Shown piece by piece: positions 36,718 to 57,240 of a stretch of 64,000 nucleotides of DNA (the first letter of the stretch is position 1; every line of letters starts with the position of its first letter). The translations under genes and the position numbers were made by a program. The stretch is from Pyrinomonadales bacterium (GTDB taxonomy: Bacteria; Acidobacteriota; Blastocatellia; Pyrinomonadales; Pyrinomonadaceae), in assembly GCA_038237475.1 (NCBI GenBank), contig JBBRYS010000010.1:130465-194464 (forward strand), in the 5' to 3' direction. The notes beneath the pieces are model-generated. The model ran no database searches. It was not told the origin of the DNA and worked only from the letters and a program-made list of their open reading frames with translations.

Positions 36718-39018
36718 CTAGATTCCTCCGCAATCCACATTACTTGAAGTCACGATCGGACTGAACCGCAGTTGATACTCCGCCGAAGTGATAAACGAGC
36801 ACACCATCCCGCGGAAATTGTTTGGCTGACTGTTCAGCACGCCGAGCCAGAAATTGTAACCGCCCTGATCCGGATTGCGTCGCAGGTAACCAAAATACTG
36901 CATCGAGACAAAAGCTGCGTTGTACTCACGCTGCCGGAACAACTGGTTTTCGGCGACGGTCTTCAACACACCGGCGCGATCCACCGAACCGTTCGCCAGG
37001 CCGGCAACCAAATTATCGCGCTCTGCCTGACTCAGCGAACCGCCGGTCTTCGCGTTTAGCTGCTCGACGTATGAACCAGCCGACATGCCTGCAGGATAAA
37101 GAGCAGTGAAGGCGGGACGAGTAACAAAATCCGCCGCCAGGGCGAGTTTACTGGCGTCGAGATTATTGTTGGCAACCACGCGACCCCGGTCCGCGATGAA
37201 CTCTGCGAACGACGGAGCTCTTCCCAGCGAAGCTCTGTAGAGGCGATATACGTAATAACCCGTCTCCTGGAATTCCGACTCGACAAAGTAAGCCGCGCTC
37301 ACCGTCGTATGATTAGTAGTTAGACAAGCGCGGTCGCCGCCACACGGAGTCAACAAGCCACTCCAGTAATCCAACCCGCCACTATCAGCTTCGCGATTAA
37401 GAAAATCGAGGTAATGCTGCCGCACAAAAAACGGCGCACTATCAAGCGGATTAGTTGTCGGTATCGCTACATCGTTATCGATGATAGTGACCGTAGCCGA
37501 GACTGGATTGCCCAGCACTGAACCGGAGCCCGGATTGTTCAGCGACACATTAAAGGTTTCGTCCCCTTCAACATAAAGATCGTCAATCAGGAGCACTCGA
37601 AATGTCTTGCTGGTTTCGCCGGCGGCAAAACTCATGGTCCGGATCACCGTCATATAGTCGGTGCGGGCCGAAGCAGTTCCATTCGAAGTCATGTAATCCA
37701 CCGTGGCGGCACTGGTCGCATCGCCGCCGCGCGTGATGGTGATGACGACGCTGCCTGCGCCTTCTCCAGCCGCATACGCGTTCGCGCTCAACTGAATCGT
37801 CGCGGGACTGGCAACTGCCACCAAACAAGTCGAGTTGGGGGCCAGATAGTTATTCATCTCATCGAGTGAGAACTGGCAGAAGTCAAAAGTTGAGCCGACC
37901 ATGCTGTTCATGATTGTGTCGGCACAGGCGCTGACCGGTGGAGATTGCTGATCCGGATGAGAAGCACCAAAGTTGTGGCCTATCTCGTGGGCCGTAATCG
38001 CGCTCTTGAAGCTGTCGGCGAAGCGTTCTGAGACTCCATATGAATGCGCGATGTCATTACAGACCGTGCTCATCCATGCGATACCGGCGATGTCGCCTTC
38101 CATGGGCCGATTGGTCCAAAGGTGCGCCAGATCGCGTGGCTGTCCGGCCAGGTTGGCGTTCCAATAGTTGGTGAACTCATGGAGCATTTGCACGGCATCG
38201 GTGGCGCTGTAAGGATCCGCGCTGGTGGCCCAGCTGTGTTGGTAGGAAATATTGAAAGTGATTCCCATCCGCTGGCGATAGACGCCGTCTACCTGGTTCA
38301 TGATGCCGAGAATTTCCGCATTGGCTGCTGCCGAGCTGCCAAAATACGAGACGTAGTCATAATCCGCTTCCGTAGCCAGATCAGCCTGGCGCAGAGTTGT
38401 CGCGGCCATCGCCTGACTTGCTCTGGGCGCGAGTTGCACGACCTCCGATTGCAAACGCGCATCAAGGATAGCGGCGCATGAACCGCGCGCACCTGCGATC
38501 ACATCCGAACTCTTGTAGAGCGCGTAGTCGTTCGGCGCCGCAGCCTTATCAAAATTACGCAGCGGCTCAACGTAATAGAATTCGTCGGCCGTGATGATGA
38601 CTCCTTCGACCTTGTCGTCCGTAATGGAAAAGCGAGCCTCAGCGCCAGGGTAGCCGCTCACCGTGCCGCGAAAAGTTCGCGCTGGGCCATCCATCCTTAC
38701 CATCTGCACGGCGCCGCCGTTGCCGACTTCTTCGGCACGGTAGTTGGCGGTACGCAGGTCGTGAGGCTCGAGCTGCAAAACAAATTGCTGCTCAACTGGG
38801 TTCAGAGAGATTCGGCCATCTTCCCTGACCTGGCGAGCGATATCGCCGGCATCGAGTTGCAGTGACTGGTACCGGCGCACCAGCCTGTCAATCTCCTGCA
38901 CCGGAACGGGGCTTACATTCGCCCCTGAAAGTGTCGGGCGCGCAATCGCTATTGTGGCAATGATGACGGCGCAGAAAACAGCGATCAAAAAAACCCGAGA
39001 ACCCCTGGGAACATTCAT
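36718..39018 (-). CDS. secreted reprolysin-like (M12B-type) zinc metalloprotease with Calx-beta and DUF4214 C-terminal domains
   Basis: Has a signal anchor and the zinc motif ITAHEIGHNFGASHPD. A Calx-beta-like block follows (IQLSANAYAAGEGAGSVVITITRGG...FAAGETSKTFRVLLIDD). DUF4214 motifs are FVRQHYLDFLNREADSGGLDYW and YFGYLRRNPDQGGYNFW...MVCSFITSAEYQLRF. Confidence 0.85.
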   Translation of the reverse strand: MNVPRGSRVFLIAVFCAVIIATIAIARPTLSGANVSPVPVQEIDRLVRRYQSLQLDAGDIARQVREDGRISLNPVEQQFVLQLEPHDLRTANYRAEEVGNGGAVQMVRMDGPARTFRGTVSGYPGAEARFSITDDKVEGVIITADEFYYVEPLRNFDKAAAPNDYALYKSSDVIAGARGSCAAILDARLQSEVVQLAPRASQAMAATTLRQADLATEADYDYVSYFGSSAAANAEILGIMNQVDGVYRQRMGITFNISYQHSWATSADPYSATDAVQMLHEFTNYWNANLAGQPRDLAHLWTNRPMEGDIAGIAWMSTVCNDIAHSYGVSERFADSFKSAITAHEIGHNFGASHPDQQSPPVSACADTIMNSMVGSTFDFCQFSLDEMNNYLAPNSTCLVAVASPATIQLSANAYAAGEGAGSVVITITRGGDATSAATVDYMTSNGTASARTDYMTVIRTMSFAAGETSKTFRVLLIDDLYVEGDETFNVSLNNPGSGSVLGNPVSATVTIIDNDVAIPTTNPLDSAPFFVRQHYLDFLNREADSGGLDYWSGLLTPCGGDRACLTTNHTTVSAAYFVESEFQETGYYVYRLYRASLGRAPSFAEFIADRGRVVANNNLDASKLALAADFVTRPAFTALYPAGMSAGSYVEQLNAKTGGSLSQAERDNLVAGLANGSVDRAGVLKTVAENQLFRQREYNAAFVSMQYFGYLRRNPDQGGYNFWLGVLNSQPNNFRGMVCSFITSAEYQLRFSPIVTSSNVDCGGI

Positions 39019-49696: not shown

Positions 49697-51037
49697 TTAC
49701 TTTGAGGCGCAGGTGCGAAATCCCGCCCACACGTCGCGCCGATGCGGCTGATAGAAGTTTCGGTAAGTATTGTTGATAAGGCGCGAACGAGTTGCCCAAC
49801 ACCCGCCACGAAGAACCTTGTGATCGCCAAACCAGGGCTCGGAATATTCTTTGTAAGGTCCCGCGGTAAAGCCCGGATAAGCATTAAAGTCGCTGGCTGT
49901 CCATTCCCAGACATTGCCGATCATCTGCCGGCACCCCGACGCGCTATCACTTGCAGGCAGGGCGTCAACGGGGATGCAGCCCAATGCGCGCGAGTCCAGA
50001 TTAGCGCGGCCTGAGCCCAGCGCTTCATCGCCCCAGGGAAATGTTCGCTTGTGGGATGTCGTATTTCCATCCGGTTCTATACTTGCCGCCAGCTCCCACT
50101 CTGCTTCCGTTGGCAGACGACGGCCCGCCCAGCGGCAGTACGCATCGGCCTCAAACCAGTTGACGTGTATGACGGGCAGTCGCTCATCGAGACTAACCCA
50201 TTCATCAAAATTGCGGCGCAGCCAGCGGCCGTTTCCTTCCTTGAACCAATACACCGGATGTTCGGCGCGCACACTAGTGCGCCACTGCCAGCCTTCTGCC
50301 GTCCACAGTTCCCTTCTCTGATAGCCGTGGTCGTTTACAAAATCGCTAAATTCAAGATTGCTCACGGCGGTCCTGGAAATCAAAAAAGGCGCTATTTCAA
50401 CCTCATGTGCAAGTTGCTCATTGTCGAAGACAAAGCGATTGCAGGAAGGGCTGCCGAGAATAAATTTGCCGCCGCCGAATTCTGCATCGCCGGGTACAAA
50501 CAAGTTGGCTTGAGTGCGATCAGCGTCATGCGGCGATCTCGCCTCGTTAACGATCTGCTTTGCATCACTGTCGCTTGCCGGTGATGGATAGCTCAGAGTC
50601 TGACGTGTGTAAGTGATCGCTTCGTCGTGCATCTGCTCGTGTAACAGTACAAGGTTCAGAAAATAGTCCGCATCATATCCCTGAGCAACTGTCATATCCG
50701 GTTTCGCTGAGTTCGCCTGCTCGATCACTCGCTCCAGAACTGTTTGCATATAAGCAAGAGTTTCTGCTCGCTCAAGTAATGGCAGATCCCAGCGAGTGTC
50801 GTGGCCGACACGCGCCGAATCGTAGTGATCGTCGCCATTCTTAAGAATCGGCGACTGTTTACCGAAGTGCCGGAGGATCCAGAACTCCTGAAACCAGGCG
50901 ACGTGTCCAATTTCCCAGCGGAGCGGATTCACGATTGGTAAGCGCGGGCCCAGCCACTGCTCGTCACTCAAGTCGCCAACCAACGCGAGTGTGCGCGAGC
51001 GAGTCTCCCGCAAGGCGCTAACCAATTCCGTGTTCAT
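49697..51037 (-). CDS. EgtB/SenA-family sulfoxide (or selenoxide) synthase: DinB_2 + FGE-sulfatase domains
   Basis: The N-terminal DinB_2 domain has iron-ligand motifs WEIGHVAWFQEFW and LLHEQMHDEAITY. The C-terminal FGE-like domain has RRLPTEAEWE, GNVWEWT and VLRGGCWAT. Confidence 0.85.
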   Translation of the reverse strand: MNTELVSALRETRSRTLALVGDLSDEQWLGPRLPIVNPLRWEIGHVAWFQEFWILRHFGKQSPILKNGDDHYDSARVGHDTRWDLPLLERAETLAYMQTVLERVIEQANSAKPDMTVAQGYDADYFLNLVLLHEQMHDEAITYTRQTLSYPSPASDSDAKQIVNEARSPHDADRTQANLFVPGDAEFGGGKFILGSPSCNRFVFDNEQLAHEVEIAPFLISRTAVSNLEFSDFVNDHGYQRRELWTAEGWQWRTSVRAEHPVYWFKEGNGRWLRRNFDEWVSLDERLPVIHVNWFEADAYCRWAGRRLPTEAEWELAASIEPDGNTTSHKRTFPWGDEALGSGRANLDSRALGCIPVDALPASDSASGCRQMIGNVWEWTASDFNAYPGFTAGPYKEYSEPWFGDHKVLRGGCWATRSRLINNTYRNFYQPHRRDVWAGFRTCASK

Positions 51038-51088: not shown

Positions 51089-52480
51089 CTACTTGCCATC
51101 CATCGAAATAAACAGATTGTTTAAAGATTCGGCCAGGGTTGGGTGCGCGAATATGCCATCCTTCAGGGCCGTGTAAGGCAAGCGACCCATTATCGCTATC
51201 TCAAACATGCTCATCAACTCACCGGCTTCAATGCCCAGGACAGCGCAGCCCAGTATTAGTTTCGTTTCGGCGTCAACCACAGCTTTCATGAAACCGCGAG
51301 TCTCGCCCATTTCAATTGCCCGTGCGACCCGGCTCATTGGCAGTTTCGCCACGCGAATGTCCAGGCCCTGATTCCTGGCTTCTGTTTCGGTGATCCCGAT
51401 GCGGCCGAGTTGCGGATCCAGGAAGACAGTGTATGGAACCAGCCGATCCGTTGTGGTCGCCTGACCCTGTTCAAGGATGTTCGTGCGCAGGATACGAAAG
51501 TCATCGTAGGAAATGTGCGTAAAAGCAGGGCCGCCATTAACATCACCCAACGCATAGATTCCTTCAACATTCGTCTCCAACCGATCGTTTACCCTGACAA
51601 AGCGACGCGCGTCTGTTTCGACTCCAGCCGACTTCAGGTTGAGCCGATCCGTATTCGGTTCACGACCGGCCGCAACCAGCAGGTGAGAACCTTCTACAAT
51701 CCTCTCGCCTCCACTTGTTTTGGCCGTCATGCTTACTTTGGTATTGCTGCCCGTGATGCTCACAGCCTCAGAATTCAGCAGGACGGTGATTCCATCCTCC
51801 TCCAGTATCTTGGCTACTTCGCCGGCAACATCCGGGTCTTCGCGATTCAGCAGCTGCTCCCCCCGCTGAACAATAGTTACTTCGCTACCGAAACGTCTGA
51901 ACATCTGACCAAACTCCAGACCGATGTAGCCGCCACCTAACACAAGCAAATGCTCCGGTAGCGTTTCCAGTTCCATTATCGAAGTCGAATCCAAAGCCGG
52001 AATGCCTTCCAAACCGGGAATCGATGGCTGCGCGGGACGAGCACCGGTGTTGAGGAAGATTCTGTCAGCCGTAAGCAAACGCGTGCCGCCTTCATTCAGG
52101 ACCACCTCAAGTGAAGTTTGACCGGCGAACGTTGCCTCACCTCGCAACAGCTCAAGACCCGCAGTCTTCTCGATGTTCCTGAGTCCACCGTCGCGAAAGC
52201 TTTCGACGATCTCTTGCTTGCGCCGGCGGACCGCTGACATGCTGACCGTCACCGGTCCACAGTTCACACCGTAATCAGCACTGCGACGCGCGAGATACGC
52301 CACGCGAGCGCTGGCCACCATTGTTTTCGTCGGCGTGCAGCCGACGTTGACGCAGGACCCGCCAATATTCTTTCGCTCGATGATGGCTGTTTTCAATCCA
52401 GCTTTGGCGAGCGCGACGGAAAGCGGCGTACCTCCCTGCCCTGAGCCAATCACAATAGCATCGTATGTTTCAACTTCCAT
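51089..52480 (-). CDS. class I pyridine nucleotide-disulfide oxidoreductase (flavoprotein disulfide reductase, MerA-like core without metal-binding extensions)
   Basis: Lies in ORF 51089..52513. ATG at 52480 gives [17 protein letters not shown] (FAD GxGxxG). It has the redox-active [13 protein letters not shown], the NAD motif [11 protein letters not shown], and the dimerisation-domain HPTLAE. Confidence 0.85.
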
Positions 52481-52726
52481 GACAAATGTTTCTCCGATTC
52501 GCACCCAAAGCAAACCGCCTCGGGTGCATTAGTCGCAGCCTGCCCCAATGAATTTTCTCATGCCGAGTCCTTTTGAAACTCTTTTGCCTGACCCGCCGCG
52601 CCGCTCGCACTGCAGACTACGCTGCAGGCCACACGTCAACTTCAACAAAAAAAAGGTAAAGAGACTTTGTTTACTTCTTCTCCTCCGCCCGTACCGGGCG
52701 TCTTAGCGAACAGCAGGAAGCTGAAC

Positions 52727-52911
52727 CTATTGCGGGCATTCAGTATTGCTGTGCGTCACTGTGGCGCTAAAACGCTGTTGGTACTCGGTTGAGGTCACAA
52801 ACGAACAGACCATTGCGTGCTGTTTGGCGACATCCCGCAAGCGCGCCGTTGACCTGCACCAGCCAAAACAGAAAATAATTCACGTCCGCATTACGACACG
52901 CAGGTCGACAG
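52727..52911 (-). pseudogene. decayed, frameshifted copy of the DUF4214 C-terminal tail
   Basis: Minus-strand translation gives ...DVNYFLFWLVQVNGA, then after a 1-nt frameshift VAKQHAMVCSFVTSTEYQQRFSATVTHSNTECPQ*. This is clearly homologous to the last roughly 60 aa of the 53062..55554 gene. Confidence 0.7.
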
Positions 52912-53061
52912 GAGCGCGTACGACGGTGCGTCTTCGTTGACCTGGTGTTTTCTCCGAGCCTTCGCCTCAATCGCTGCACGAGCCTATCTGGTGACGTCAC
53001 TTTCCCTCGTGACAGGCATCGCGCTGAACGGCAATCAAGATCGAACGAGTCACTCGCGAGC

Positions 53062-55554
53062 TTACTGACACTCGACATTCGTGTGCGTTACCAATGAACT
53101 GAACCGCTGTTGATATTCTGCAGATGTGATGAATGAACATACCATCGCATGCTGCTTGGGTACGTCTCGCAATGGCGCGCTGTTGACCTGGCCCAACCAA
53201 AACAGGAATCCACCGATATCCGGATCCCGACGCAAGTAACCGAAGTATTGTGTTGTCACAAACGCGCGATTGTATTCTGCGTCAATGAACGGACGGTTGT
53301 TGATTGGATTTGTTTGCGTGTTATCGTCGGCGAGGCGATAGATTACGGCACCGCGACCGGCGTTTCCGCCTCCGCTTTGGTTGTATAGATCGATCAGCGC
53401 CTGGCGCTGCGAACCCAGGTCCACTGGCAGCCCAGTCTGATCCTTGATGTCATTCTTGATCGTCGCCAACAGCGCATCGACGTATGCTGGTCCATCAAGA
53501 CCTGACGCATAACTTGAAATGAACGCCGCCCTCTGGACGAAAGCAGTTGACAGATCGAGCTGCGCCTGTGCGAGACTCGCACCGCCAACCACTCGGGCAC
53601 GGTCCGGCGTAAACGCTGCGTAACTCACCAACTTGTTCGCTTCTGCCGGGTTTGAGTTGTCGGGATTCGGAAACGGTTGATTGTTACCAAACGCCGCTCG
53701 GTAGAGCCGGTAGACATAAGAACCAGTCTGTTGATACTCGAGTTCGTAGAAGAATGCGTTCGACACATCGATTCGTTTGGTGCGAATGCAAACCTGATCG
53801 TTTCCGCATTGCGTGATCAGGCTGGTCCAAAAATCAAACCCACCCTGATCAGGTTCGCGATTCAGAAAATCATGATAGTGCTGGCGAACAAAATCCGTTA
53901 CATCGTCGATTGGGTTTGTAGGCGGTTCACTGGCGTCGTCATCAATCCTTAGGTTGGCAGTTGCTGGTGTACCCAGGGCACCAAATCCAGTCGTATTCGA
54001 AAGAGCCAGCATCACTCTTTCCGGGCCTTCGACGTAAGCGTCCTGAGTGATCAGGACTCTGAACGTCTTTGAATCCTCACCGGCGGCGAACCTCAGCGTT
54101 CCGAACGCTTCGGTGAAATCACATTTAGGTGAGGCCATGCCGGTAACCGTCGAGCAACGAGAGCCGCTATCCCCTCCAGTTGCAAAGTCAACGGTTACCG
54201 GTAACGATTTATCTCCTAAGCGCACTACCGTAATGGTAGCGAAGCTCGAACTCTCAGTCGTCGTAAAGTTTGCTGAACTGAACTGTAGAAAACCGCCAAC
54301 CGGATTGACATTGATAGTGAAGGTCTGTGGAGGCGACGTGTCATGCCCGCCATTGGCAGTACCGCCATTGTCCTGCAGCACAACGGTGATTGTTGCCGAG
54401 CCACCTCCATTCGCGGCGGGTGCATAGCTTAAAGCCCCTGTCGAAGAAATAGCCGGAGCCGTCGCGAAGAGGCTCGGGTAGGTGTTGTTGGTGATCACGA
54501 AGCTTAATGTTTGATTTGCTTCGTTCGCGGGGCCGGGCGACAAGTTATTGGCCCAATTATTCACAATTTGCGTCCCCGCGTTGTTGTTCACTGTTTGGTC
54601 CAAACCTTTCGTGAACATTGGAGAATCATTGACGGGGTTTATGGTCACAACAAACGTATCGGTCATGCTCTGCCTGTTCGTGCCGTTGACCGTCACACTA
54701 ATCGTTGCAGTGCCAAACTGGTCAGCAGCCGGATTGATCGTCACAGTCCGAGTTGAGCTAGAGCCAGTCACTACCAGGTTCGCAGCGTTATTTGGCACGA
54801 GTGCTGTGTTTGAGGAGGTGGCGGTTATTGATGTGATTGACCCAGAGCCACCGACATTGAACGAGAACTGAAGCTGCGTATCCTCATTGGTAGCCTTGTC
54901 AGTGATGTCTTCGACCGACACCTGCGCCTCGAAGGCACCTATATCAACTGTCGCAACTGTATCAGCATCGGGACCATCAACCTGTCGCGCGAAGCCCGTG
55001 CCTCGCTGATCCGTCGTCAAACTGAGCGGAAAGCCAGTGACTGAATTGTCACCTGCATCGAGAGCCGGACTTCCAGCGAGGAGTGCTTGAGTTTGCGTCA
55101 GGCCACCGTTGTTAGTGAGTGGTGCCAGCCTGGGGTCGACGTTAGTTTTATTGTGGGTGGTCGTACCAGTGAAAGTCGCGCCAGTCGTGTTTCCAATCAG
55201 ATTGTAGTCTTGCGAGTTGAAGGCACCGAGTAAGTCTGGGCCGCTACCTCCGCCACTGACCGAGTTGTTCGCGACAATTGTGTTCTCCAGGTTGACGGTG
55301 CTGCTGTTGTTGGCGATGCCTCCGCCGCTGCCGCCGCTGGTATTGACGGCGTTATTTGAGATCGTGCTATTCGTCAATGTGAGTGTGCCGGCGCCGGTCA
55401 CGAAGATGCCGCCGGCAACGTTAGCATCGCCCGTCACGCTATTGCCGCTCACCGTGCTGTTTATCAAGTTGAGAAGCGCGCCTCTGTGGTCGATGCCACC
55501 TCCTGTGTAAGCATTGTTTCCGCTGACCGTGCTGTTGGTAAGTGTCATCGCCAT
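53062..55554 (-). CDS. 5'-truncated surface protein: choice-of-anchor-Q/beta-helix repeats + cadherin/VCBS-like repeats + Calx-beta + DUF4214 tail
   Basis: ORF 53062..56001 is open. Only from about M150 (55554) does it read as real protein: MAMTLTNSTVSGNNAYTGGGI..., NSTISNNAV..., DPRLAPLTNNGGLTQTQALLAGSPALDAG, VNDSPMF, Calx-beta FAAGEDSKTFRVLITQD, and DUF4214 FVRQHYHDFLNREPDQGGFDFW. It has no signal peptide, and the first roughly 150 codons are antisense of the neighbouring fragment. Confidence 0.7.
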   Translation of the reverse strand: MAMTLTNSTVSGNNAYTGGGIDHRGALLNLINSTVSGNSVTGDANVAGGIFVTGAGTLTLTNSTISNNAVNTSGGSGGGIANNSSTVNLENTIVANNSVSGGGSGPDLLGAFNSQDYNLIGNTTGATFTGTTTHNKTNVDPRLAPLTNNGGLTQTQALLAGSPALDAGDNSVTGFPLSLTTDQRGTGFARQVDGPDADTVATVDIGAFEAQVSVEDITDKATNEDTQLQFSFNVGGSGSITSITATSSNTALVPNNAANLVVTGSSSTRTVTINPAADQFGTATISVTVNGTNRQSMTDTFVVTINPVNDSPMFTKGLDQTVNNNAGTQIVNNWANNLSPGPANEANQTLSFVITNNTYPSLFATAPAISSTGALSYAPAANGGGSATITVVLQDNGGTANGGHDTSPPQTFTINVNPVGGFLQFSSANFTTTESSSFATITVVRLGDKSLPVTVDFATGGDSGSRCSTVTGMASPKCDFTEAFGTLRFAAGEDSKTFRVLITQDAYVEGPERVMLALSNTTGFGALGTPATANLRIDDDASEPPTNPIDDVTDFVRQHYHDFLNREPDQGGFDFWTSLITQCGNDQVCIRTKRIDVSNAFFYELEYQQTGSYVYRLYRAAFGNNQPFPNPDNSNPAEANKLVSYAAFTPDRARVVGGASLAQAQLDLSTAFVQRAAFISSYASGLDGPAYVDALLATIKNDIKDQTGLPVDLGSQRQALIDLYNQSGGGNAGRGAVIYRLADDNTQTNPINNRPFIDAEYNRAFVTTQYFGYLRRDPDIGGFLFWLGQVNSAPLRDVPKQHAMVCSFITSAEYQQRFSSLVTHTNVECQ

Positions 55555-55557
55555 TGA

Positions 55558-56088
55558 CGAGTTCAGGCCTTTGCGGGGGATCGCGCGCGCGTAGTAGGCG
55601 GTGCCAATTTGGCGCAGGCCCAGTTGGAATTGGCCCAGGCGTTTGTGCAGCGGCCAGAGTTTCTGGCGAAGTACCCGGCAAATTTGGATGGCCCGGGTTT
55701 TGTCGATGCCATCGTGGCGACGATCTTGAATGATATCGGGCCCGATCTGACGGCGCAGCGCCAGGGCTTGATAAATCTCTTCAACTCGGGCGGTCGTGGC
55801 GCCGTGCTGTATCGCCTGGCCGATGACAACGTGCAAACCAACCCAATCAACAATCGCCCGTTCATCGACGCTGAGTACAACCGGGCGTTTGTAGCCACAC
55901 AGTACTTTGGCTATTTGCGGCGAGACCCGGATATGGGCGGCTTTCTGTTCTGGCTGGGCCAGGTCAATAGCGCGCCTTTGCGGGACGTGCCGAAACAACA
56001 CGCGATGGTTTGCTCCTTCATTACTTCAGCTGAATACCAACGGCGATTCAGCTCGGTTGTCACTCATACAAATTTGGAGTGTCAGTAA
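55558..56088 (+). pseudogene. orphan 3' fragment of a paralogous DUF4214-tail gene
   Basis: Plus-strand frame is open from 55558: RVQAFAGDRARVVGGANLAQAQLELAQAFVQRPEF...YRLADDNVQTNPINNRPFIDAEYNRAFVATQYFGYLRRDPDMGGFLFWLGQVNSAPLRDVPKQHAMVCSFITSAEYQRRFSSVVTHTNLECQ*. This is co-linear with the last roughly 175 aa of the 53062..55554 product, but there is no upstream body or start context. Confidence 0.65.
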
Positions 56089-56557: not shown

Positions 56558-56634
56558 TGGTAGCGGGGGGCGGGCTTGAACCGCCGACCTTGGGGTTATG
56601 AATCCCACGCTCTAACCAGCTGAGCTACCCCGCC
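56558..56634 (-). tRNA. tRNA-Met (anticodon CAT; a lysidine-modified tRNA-Ile2 cannot be excluded)
   Basis: Minus strand reads GGCGGGGTAGCTCAGCTGGTTAGAGCGTGGGATTCATAACCCCAAGGTCGGCGGTTCAAGCCCGCCCCCCGCTACCA. It folds as a cloverleaf with a 7-bp acceptor stem, D-arm GCTC/GAGC, T-arm GGCGG/CCGCC with TTCAAGC loop, and an encoded CCA. Confidence 0.92.
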
Positions 56635-56755
56635 ATGCGAACTACTTGATCCGCCTTGCGAACGATTGATCCGCCATGCGAACGATTGATCCGCATTGCG
56701 AACGATTGATCCGGCCGTGCTAATGATTGACCGGCATACGAACCATTGTCGAGAA
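56635..56755. repeat. tandem array of about 6 copies of a 19-22-nt unit (consensus ATGCGAACGATTGATCCGCC)
   Basis: atgcgaactacttgatccgcc / ttgcgaacgattgatccgcc / atgcgaacgattgatccgc / attgcgaacgattgatccggcc / gtgctaatgattgaccggc / atacgaaccattg. The array directly abuts the tRNA 5' end. Confidence 0.85.
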
Positions 56756-56949
56756 GTCATTATAGGGGCCGGAAGCGATAGGTCAAGAAGGCCTTCCCGG
56801 ACAGTTCATTTGGCTTCTAGTACGGGCACTTTGGGTGGGCAAGCAACGGGATGGCTTCGAGTAGGAAGCCGTAAGCAGGATTCGTGCCGATGACGACTTC
56901 ATAAGTCTTTGATGAAACGGACCGAGCAAGAATTTAAGAGGTGGTCACT

Positions 56950-57240
56950 CAGCCGTCCGCTTTGCGGACTGACAATCGTCGCTTTGCGGACTGACAATCG
57001 TCGCTTTGCGGACTGACAATCGTCGCTTTGCGGACTGACAATCGTCGCCTGCGGACTGACGATCGTCGCTTTGGGACTGACGATCGTCGCTTTGCGGACT
57101 GACGATCGTCGCTTTGGGACTGACGATCGTCGCTTTGGGACTGACGATCGTCGCTTTGCGGACTGACGATCGTCTCTTTGCGGACTCACAATCATCGCTT
57201 TGCGGACTGACGATCGTCGCTTCGGGACTGACAATCGTTG
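56950..57240. repeat. tandem array of about 13 copies of a 21-22-nt unit (GCGGACTGAC[A/G]ATCGTCGCTTT), plus one isolated copy at 57289-57310
   Basis: Read directly. There are two subtypes (gacaatcgtc and the perfect 10-nt palindrome gacgatcgtc; gcggact versus gggact). The unit is about 80% identical to the reverse complement of the 56635-56755 unit. Confidence 0.9.

Follow-up and report, generated by a model that had tools for sequence, protein, structure and literature searches.

The window, by which we mean the whole 64-kb stretch of DNA that was analysed, contains three broken copies of one large secreted-protein gene family, and the host genome is Acidobacteria-like (Blastocatellia-like), from soil. 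Members of this family are large secreted proteins in which variable heads (CSLREA beta-helix, metalloprotease and others) precede Calx-beta and a conserved helical C-terminus, the 2xDUF4214 module. Their genes encode about 1100-2200 aa, and two or three of them often follow one another in a tandem array (L094, L104, L096, L098, L110); divergent pairs are also found (L144, L142, L167). The largest of the broken copies (main), the tail fragments and an intact fourth member, whose DUF4214 tail is 42-45% identical to the tails, are listed in Table 1.

Table 1. Position of the family copies and associated features in the window
Feature	Coordinates	Strand	Basis or remark
Main, 5'-truncated paralogue, 830 aa	53062-55554	minus	Pfam and NCBIfam matches, alignment to full-length relatives
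Tail1, C-terminal 184 codons of main, inverted homologue of tail2	53065-53616	minus	
Tail2, 176 codons plus stop, 3' fragment of a second paralogue	55558-56088	plus	DUF4214 match and homology to main
Tail3, decayed last ~58 codons of a third paralogue	52727-52905	minus	tblastn and reading by eye
Spurious 149-codon N-terminal extension of the 979-aa ORF	55555-56001	minus	codon-aligned antisense of tail2
Head-to-head junction	55555-55575		homology ends on both sides
tRNA-Met	56558-56634	minus	470 bp from tail2
Fourth family member, intact	36718-39018	minus	reprolysin metalloprotease head, Calx-beta, DUF4214 tail

The main gene and the annotated 979-aa protein

Main is a run of uninterrupted codons for beta-helix repeats, a choice-of-anchor Q domain, cadherin/tandem-95-like repeats, Calx-beta and the C-terminal 2xDUF4214 module. 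The choice-of-anchor Q model NF041518 matches residues 140-211 of the 830 with 65.2 bits (cutoff 25), PF03160 (Calx-beta) scores 40.7 bits, and PF13946 (DUF4214) scores 48.4 bits in two stretches. An earlier note on this DNA had placed the start of the gene inside a choice-of-anchor-Q beta-helix; the open frame does begin in beta-helix repeats, but the Q domain proper lies ~140 residues further downstream. Over the C-terminal ~800 residues of full-length family members, main shows 44-53% identity. Its tail belongs to a subtype ending in ...MVCSF...THTN.EC(Q), with two conserved cysteines, and this subtype differs from that of distant homologues.

In the annotation, main forms part of a longer ORF (53062-56001, minus strand, 979 aa; NCBI protein P0001). 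Six full-length relatives (about 1100-1340 aa) align to this ORF by tblastn only from about 55548-55584 downward, in agreement with the earlier note's view that the gene makes sense only below about 55554. The alignments of the relatives begin at their own residues 267-297, and that of P0022 at 523. A signal peptide and a CSLREA domain (C-[TS]-L-R-E-A) are present in all six and absent from the window ORF, so that the N-terminal part which the note had reported missing is indeed lacking by alignment and by tblastn, and tblastn searches with ten full-length relatives detected no N-terminal/CSLREA segment elsewhere in the 64 kb. At least 280 N-terminal residues are absent from main; judged from its closest intact relative, L092 (ORF of at least 1365 aa), the loss probably amounts to at least 535 codons. 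The evolutionary rate of main is not accelerated relative to L092.

The first 149 codons of the annotated ORF are homologous to none of the family members. They are the codon-aligned antisense of tail2, whose sense strand is the conserved one, and they remain open because tail2 lacks TTA, CTA and TCA codons before codon 156, where the only one occurs. The annotated 979-aa protein, which the earlier note had called a trap, is an ORF-calling artefact. P0001 joins a truncated gene to the antisense of a different fragment, and as such a chimera it should serve neither to represent the family nor to define domain boundaries.

Relationships among the three tails

The frame of tail2 is directly preceded by an in-frame TGA at 55555-55557. 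The fragment is the C-terminal part of a 2xDUF4214 module, with the cut in the linker that precedes the second DUF4214 unit, and on its own it matches PF13946 at 36.9 bits. It aligns to main residues 647-830 with 75% aa identity (E = 8e-84), consistent with the earlier description of this frame as co-linear with the last ~175 aa of the main protein, and shares 85% aa identity with the tail of L081. Among 80 other tails, 59 alignment columns are conserved to 95% or more, and tail2 deviates at none of them; tests for relaxed constraint in tail2 and main gave no sign of decay. The 159-aa tail2 ORF itself is absent from the protein collection.

The tail alignment and dN/dS calculation called for in the earlier note gave 72% nucleotide identity between tail1 and tail2 over all 534 aligned nt, uniformly distributed (58-83% in 60-nt windows), with saturated synonymous sites (pS 0.74) and a dN/dS of about 0.05. 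Because of this saturation and the low dN/dS, the two tails are old paralogues, as the note had judged from an identity of roughly three quarters estimated by eye. They share no identical run above 13 nt and show neither mosaic nor conversion tracts. Tail1 (53065-53616) and tail2 (55558-56085) lie 1941 nt apart, close to the ~500-bp inverted homologous segments around ~2 kb described previously; the inverted arms 53062-53359 and 55791-56088 (298 nt) are 79% complementary.

The third tail, which the earlier note had located 150-330 bp beyond main, occupies a position 157-335 bp downstream of the main stop. By tblastn it is detected at 52736-52879 with 65-68% aa identity, and by eye the homology extends from about 52905 to 52727. 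One base is missing after ...FLFWLVQVNGA, giving a 1-nt frameshift, while the fragment retains its own stop (TAG at 52729-52727) with a hairpin and a T-run beyond. The frameshift is real, and tail3 recurs at 100% identity in a Logan contig (L169), independently assembled from the same organism. Identity between tail3 and tail1 is 59% over 231 aligned nt, and the longest identical runs in pairs with tail3 are 8-9 nt. Mismatches fall at all four bases and none of the 34 large ORFs scanned matched a reverse transcriptase; together with the low identity, this led us to reject a template/variable repeat arrangement of the kind found in diversity-generating retroelements (DGR). Chance is excluded as a source of the tail homologies by E-values of 1e-15 to 1e-84 and by DUF4214 Pfam matches above the cutoff.

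Recombination and function of the tails

Silent-cassette gene-conversion systems are known from Neisseria pilE/pilS, Borrelia vlsE and the Anaplasma msp2 'functional pseudogenes', and they resemble this locus in that truncated, promoterless partial copies of a surface-protein gene lie near a larger copy. The earlier note had raised the idea that the tails are silent cassettes for gene conversion of the C-terminus. In contrast to those systems, the locus has no intact expression site, its only large copy being 5'-truncated and without a signal peptide, there are only two fragments, and these carry the conserved portion of the protein rather than the variable one. Identical flanking tracts are lacking as well, the maximum being the 13-nt run, and a Pfam search covering 34 large ORFs of the window (part of those with at least 200 aa and none of the small ones) gave no match to a recombinase, integrase, transposase or reverse transcriptase. 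With no intact recipient, no recombinase among these ORFs, and tails that form the most conserved part of the family, the silent-cassette proposal is not sustained. Gene conversion or homologous inversion between the tails is likewise rejected on the 13-nt maximum and the saturated dS. The only inverted repeats at the segment boundaries are the tails themselves, 72-79% identical. No second copy of the 3' 24-mer of the tRNA-Met was found with up to three mismatches allowed, and a mobile-element or tRNA-island origin was discarded, as there was no att repeat and no integrase or transposase among the ORFs scanned.

A broader alternative holds that the tail fragments are functional, either as standalone small DUF4214 proteins or as a reservoir of C-terminal modules for shuffling, gene conversion or tail-tail inversion, and we regard it as improbable. 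In its favour, tail2 combines an intact frame with perfect conservation, the protein database often contains tail-only ORFs (164-181 aa), the same module occurs on many different heads, and five independent true truncations (in the window, L109, L143, L159 and L164) break within ~22 residues at the tail start. However, these tail-only ORFs have no conserved start codon or signal peptide, several database 'tail-only proteins' are frameshift or deletion products of otherwise complete genes (L163, L166), and the clustering of breakpoints is open to detection bias, as the retrieval yielded only tails of nearly full length and further breakpoints lie at various upstream positions. The absence of conversion tracts and of recombinase matches among the ORFs scanned, and the location of the tails in the conserved rather than the variable part of the family, also argue against such a role. 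Poly-A slippage was dismissed as the origin of tail-only ORFs: a run of at least 7 A within 60 nt upstream was seen for just 4 of 85 tails, the window copy not being one of them.

The structural model bears on the same question. In an AlphaFold2 model (pLDDT 93, pTM 0.89) the 295-aa 2xDUF4214 module forms one compact helical unit, and it appears to be a self-contained unit common to many heads. Tail2 covers about two-thirds of the modelled fold, so that as a standalone protein it would lack about one-third of a single compact structure. No PDB chain matches the module in sequence, and the best fold match to the model, the N-terminal LPS-anchoring domain of Caulobacter RsaA (6t72), is weak (E = 0.087, TM 0.30-0.34, 13% identity). 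An anchoring role for the tail would fit this match, which we treat as a lead only; literature on DUF4214 and CSLREA held nothing informative for tail function. A more specific proposal, which we consider quite improbable, is that genes of this family preferentially break or rejoin at one boundary, directly upstream of the last DUF4214 unit (K-x-P-S-Y-x-x-F-x-x-D-R-A-R-V-V-G-G), and that tail-only fragments are shuffling intermediates or a reservoir and not random debris. If true, heads and tails of surface proteins in Blastocatellia would still be undergoing module shuffling, and 55558-56088 would be one such fragment.

The junction near 55555 and the origin of the relics

Homology to main stops at about 55554-55575 and homology to tail2 starts at about 55561-55567. 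The two sides of the junction have no repeat in common, no repeat of 14 nt or longer at the junction recurs elsewhere in the window, the sides do not differ in GC content or tetranucleotide composition, and there are no Ns. Composition thus shows no sign of an inter-genome chimera. The only independent assembly found, Logan SRR19962011 from the same organism, covers both flanks with 100% identity on two contigs, which end at 54882 and 57145 and leave the junction unbridged; the break at 54882 falls inside main, and no repeat in the window accounts for it. We found no syntenic locus in a close relative (the best flanking-gene match is 70% aa), and none of 79 metagenome loci showed flank homology, only the family genes being in common. 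In the window, the relics lie between an oxidoreductase gene (51089-52480) and the tRNA-Met, and an EgtB-like gene is a neighbour. With two pristine fragments and an independent same-organism assembly that leaves it unbridged, the junction near 55555 either formed recently in evolutionary terms or is a misjoin within the genome, and pristine fragments fit a very recent event and a misassembly equally well.

If the junction were a misjoin, main and tail2 would belong to intact full-length genes at separate places or further apart, and tail3 would still be real. We consider this somewhat unlikely. The family is multi-copy and highly conserved, hence hard to assemble, and two otherwise identical assemblies of a relative (L163 and L084) differ by a 119-nt internal deletion, which, together with the unexplained Logan break and the pristine state of both fragments, speaks for an assembly error. 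Against it, no 14-mer or longer sequence is shared at the junction, although graph assemblers join through k-mers, the identical composition and lack of Ns give no hint of a join, and the adjoining tail3 shows real decay at the locus. In addition, broken family copies are common and reproducible in related metagenomes, where similar truncated junctions recur in independent assemblies. Two contigs that come from different metagenome collections, L081 and L083 (99.97% identical), share a family copy that is cut off at main residue 240 and runs on into a BNR-like fragment; L092 has the intact version of this copy (90% nt identity). In L164 and L165 (two assemblies) a tail-only fragment is joined to a beta-propeller fragment, and L167 and L168 contain a 5'-truncated, frameshifted family fragment.

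Inversions offer a further route to the head-to-head geometry. A simple local inversion is disfavoured, as the displaced N-terminal part was found nowhere in the window by tblastn with the ten full-length relatives. A larger inversion, with its second breakpoint beyond the window and the missing parts together elsewhere on the chromosome, would produce this geometry from breakpoints inside two same-orientation paralogues and is compatible with the lack of an N-terminal fragment, but no positive evidence for it was found, and two paralogues would each have to be broken internally, at positions that are not homologous; we deem it very improbable.

We think it fairly likely that a cluster of paralogous genes has decayed here, its relics having arisen by non-homologous deletion or rearrangement. 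In the ancestral arrangement that we conjecture, the simplest route to the junction would be a single deletion that took both 5' parts and the common intergenic region of a divergent gene pair; with no decay in either fragment, this event would be evolutionarily recent. An earlier, separate deletion may have removed most of a tandem downstream copy, leaving tail3. The first relic would then be a paralogue that has lost its promoter, its signal peptide and its N-terminal codons, the second a 3' fragment of another paralogue lying head-to-head against it, and the third a 3' stub of 58 codons, older and frameshifted, which begins 157 bp beyond the stop of main. In their present form the three would be unable to yield a secreted full-length protein, from which we infer that all three are pseudogene fragments without function.

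Such relics resemble those left by ordinary bacterial gene decay after illegitimate recombination in other expanded surface-protein families, which likewise comprise truncated copies without start signals, show a frameshift (one here) and differing relic ages, and adjoin intact members; here, the gene caller also made a chimeric ORF across the junction. Unlike ordinary pseudogene relics, two of the three fragments lack any decay, and the junction event is therefore very recent or artefactual. Main also compares with the CSLREA/choice-of-anchor Q/Calx-beta/DUF4214 proteins of Blastocatellia-type Acidobacteria in its Q domain, cadherin-like repeats, Calx-beta and 2xDUF4214 module, but differs in lacking the signal peptide, CSLREA domain and first beta-helix repeats and in its distinct tail subtype. 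Those proteins have been named by NCBIfam and JGI.

Altogether, the locus represents gene decay of an ordinary kind (one junction may instead stem from an assembly error), not a new genetic mechanism, and by itself it opens no new question. The junction provides a concrete spot for a quality check of the 227-kb contig assembly, and the locus further illustrates how rapidly genes turn over in this large, uncharacterised surface-protein family of Acidobacteria.

The spurious ORF and the two truncated paralogues

The annotated 979-aa protein is spurious. Its ORF carries, by Pfam and NCBIfam, a Calx-beta domain, two DUF4214 stretches and a choice-of-anchor Q domain, and we aligned it with six relatives of 1072-1340 aa (P0056, P0077, P0083, P0073, P0069 and P0022), each spanning the whole homologous length. 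All six begin with a signal peptide and a CSLREA domain (C-T-L-R-E-A-I) followed by several beta-helix repeats. In this alignment the window protein has no counterpart of the signal peptide, the CSLREA domain or the first beta-helix repeats; its homology begins at ...AMTLTNSTVSGN, at window position ~55554, equivalent to residues 267-297 of the relatives (523 in P0022). A tblastn search of the whole 64 kb with ten full-length relatives found no N-terminal family piece, in agreement with an earlier note that the main gene makes sense only from about 55554 downward, with its N-terminal part gone. The closest intact relative found, metagenome locus L092, is 72% identical to the main gene in nucleotides and 75% in amino acids (dN 0.18, dS saturated); judged from its ORF of at least 1365 aa, 535 or more residues may have been lost.

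As had also been proposed, the plus-strand frame past the junction (tail2) is co-linear with the C-terminal end of the main protein (75% identity to its last 184 residues, E = 8e-84), and its DUF4214 match exceeds the Pfam cutoff. The 979-aa ORF had been called a trap, and its first 149 codons are indeed the codon-aligned antisense of tail2, an open frame for the sole reason that tail2 lacks TTA, CTA and TCA codons ahead of codon 156. Antisense frames of these DUF4214 tails tend to be open because these codons are rare; the longest open run has a median of 91 codons (87 distinct tails). The codon-aligned frame is habitually open (window 53149-53388 (+), 52746-52940 (+) and 55555-56001 (-); L081:2360-2659 (-)), and the resulting shadow ORFs look alike (...AVDLAQP.QK...) and can be picked up by gene callers.

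Features of the locus and broken family copies in metagenome contigs (L handles); positions without a handle are those of the window
Feature	Position	Strand	Remarks
Annotated 979-aa ORF	53062-56001	minus	identical to NCBI-deposited protein P0001, from a 227-kb contig
tail2	55558-56088	plus	176 codons, stop 56086-56088; frame opens directly after TGA 55555-55557
tail3	~52905-52727	minus	last ~58 codons, ...FLFWLVQVNGA / LRDVAKQHAMVCSFVTSTEYQQRFSATVTHSNTECPQ, then stop
Fourth family member	36718-39018		intact, reprolysin head
tRNA-Met(CAT)	56558-56634	minus
DinB_2 + FGE-sulfatase protein	49697-51037	minus	beside oxidoreductase gene
Pyridine-nucleotide-disulfide oxidoreductase	51089-52480	minus	directly downstream of relic cluster
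Tail-only fragments	55558-56088; L109:417-929; L143:321-890; L159:149-709; L164:8690-9238 (= L165)		unrelated upstream sequence
Truncated copy	L081:1-2958; L083:1-2818		99.97% identical contigs (ENA, JGI); cut at main residue 240, joined to BNR-like fragment
Tail-only fragment	L164; L165		behind beta-propeller fragment
5'-truncated, frameshifted fragment	L167; L168		divergent from another DUF4214-tailed gene

Two tandem-repeat arrays adjoin the tRNA gene (window 56630-56748 and 56958-57238). The first (20-bp unit, 5.9 copies) starts at the tRNA 5' end and lies between the tRNA and a strong promoter-like site, TTGACC-16-TATAAT, at 56786-56759. The second (22-bp unit, 13 copies; CGCTTTGCGGACTGACGATCGT) creates a spurious 111-aa ORF (56899-57234), and Logan contig L162 breaks within it. 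On the other flank, the oxidoreductase likely begins at the ATG at 52480 rather than at the TTG at 52513, and the 463-aa form exactly matches a gene call in Logan contig L169; the domain pair of the neighbouring DinB_2 protein is similar to EgtB-type sulfoxide synthases.

Divergence and structure of the tails

The C-terminal 184 codons of the main gene (tail1) and tail2 are 72% identical in nucleotides (387/534), with a longest identical run of 13 nt. The codon alignment, a check recommended in the note, gave pN of 0.13, pS of 0.74 (saturated) and dN/dS of about 0.05, and identity in 60-nt windows varied smoothly from 58% to 83%, with no mosaic tracts between the two. The tails are therefore old paralogues, as had been judged from an estimated three-quarters identity, and they diverged under purifying selection without sequence exchange. 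The nearest tails to tail2 are metagenomic, not tail1 (85% amino acid identity in L081, 81% in L082). At 59 columns conserved in at least 95% of 80 other tails, tail2 has no change and tail1 one, and the main gene, measured against the outgroup L084, has not evolved at an accelerated rate; both junction partners are thus undecayed. The third, frameshifted copy reported downstream of the main gene is present with one base missing and is 100% identical in the independent contig L169; it is older, being both truncated and frameshifted.

Modelled with AlphaFold2 from a 42-sequence alignment, the 295 C-terminal residues that make up the 2xDUF4214 module (window 53065-53949, minus) are predicted to form one compact all-helical unit (pLDDT 93, pTM 0.89). 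Tail2 spans only about the last two-thirds of this predicted unit, which counts against a functional standalone product. Two conserved cysteines mark the end of the main gene's tail subtype (MVCSF ... ECQ). Among PDB folds, the module comes closest to the LPS-binding N-terminal domain of RsaA, the Caulobacter S-layer protein; the similarity is weak (E = 0.087, TM 0.30-0.34), and no PDB sequence matches the module, so that a possible anchoring role of the tail is only a lead.

Broken copies across the family

Scanning metagenomes with tail2 gave 79 loci, in which genes ending in the tail are normally 1100-2200 aa; a natural short form of 335 aa carries its own signal peptide. Heads of many kinds are joined to the module, among them beta-helix, reprolysin, multicopper oxidase and ice-binding-like ones. 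The family genes often stand in tandem, two or three in a row (L094, L104, L096, L098, L110), divergent pairs occur (L144, L142), and broken copies turn up frequently. In L081 and L083 a signal-peptide-like start is followed by a BNR-like fragment in another frame and then by the truncated family gene; the intact counterpart, L092, matches at 90% identity precisely from the truncation point on. The assemblies L163 and L084 come from a single study and show 100% identity outside 119 nt of the first DUF4214 unit that L163 lacks (L163:9900-9921 vs L084:9803-9921); this deletion splits a 1685-aa gene into ORFs of 1452 and 166 aa and may represent population variation or an error of assembly. Two compensating frameshifts in L166 are probably long-read indels. 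Many database 'DUF4214 proteins' of 164-181 aa are products of such broken or frameshifted copies.

Five independent true truncations (window, L109, L143, L159 and L164) cut the tail inside ~22 residues, from K-x-P-S-Y to V-V-G-G, where the last DUF4214 unit begins; the remaining family breakpoints are scattered farther upstream. This clustering could reflect a breakage hotspot or detection bias, and we treat it as a lead, not a result, because retrieval favoured near-complete tails.

The junction and the history of the locus

The junction may be real: no repeat of 14 nt or longer is common to its two sides, GC is 54.6% on either side, the right flank has a tetranucleotide correlation of 0.92, inside the range of the left-hand segments (0.885-0.956), and real decay, confirmed in L169, adjoins it in the form of tail3. 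These observations speak against an assembly misjoin, which may still account for the junction, as both fragments are pristine and the Logan assembly of run SRR19962011, holding the organism at 100% identity, stops within the main gene, at 54882, and picks up again only at 57145, within the 22-bp array, leaving 55555 unbridged. No in-window repeat of at least 14 nt accounts for the contig end at 54882, which suggests that another close paralogue or a strain variant in the sample has sequence in common upstream of it. Neither the flanking-gene search nor the 79 metagenome loci yielded a syntenic locus from a close relative.

The most economical history is that two non-homologous deletions, the earlier leaving tail3 and the recent one creating the junction, collapsed a cluster of paralogues arranged divergently or in tandem. 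A scan of 34 large window ORFs gave no recombinase, integrase, transposase or reverse transcriptase match, and no att-like repeat was found at the tRNA-Met. The conservative list in the earlier note (deletion, inversion breakpoint or chimeric join) was reasonable. The lack of a reciprocal product anywhere in the window disfavours a simple local inversion. RecA-type recombination and gene conversion need an established minimum homology, of which the 13-nt maximum between the tails falls short, making such exchange implausible; as the fragments also hold the conserved, not the variable, portion of the protein, the suggested silent cassettes for C-terminal gene conversion are unsupported. The locus comprises gene relics of a surface-protein family with rapid turnover, or is partly an artefact of assembly.
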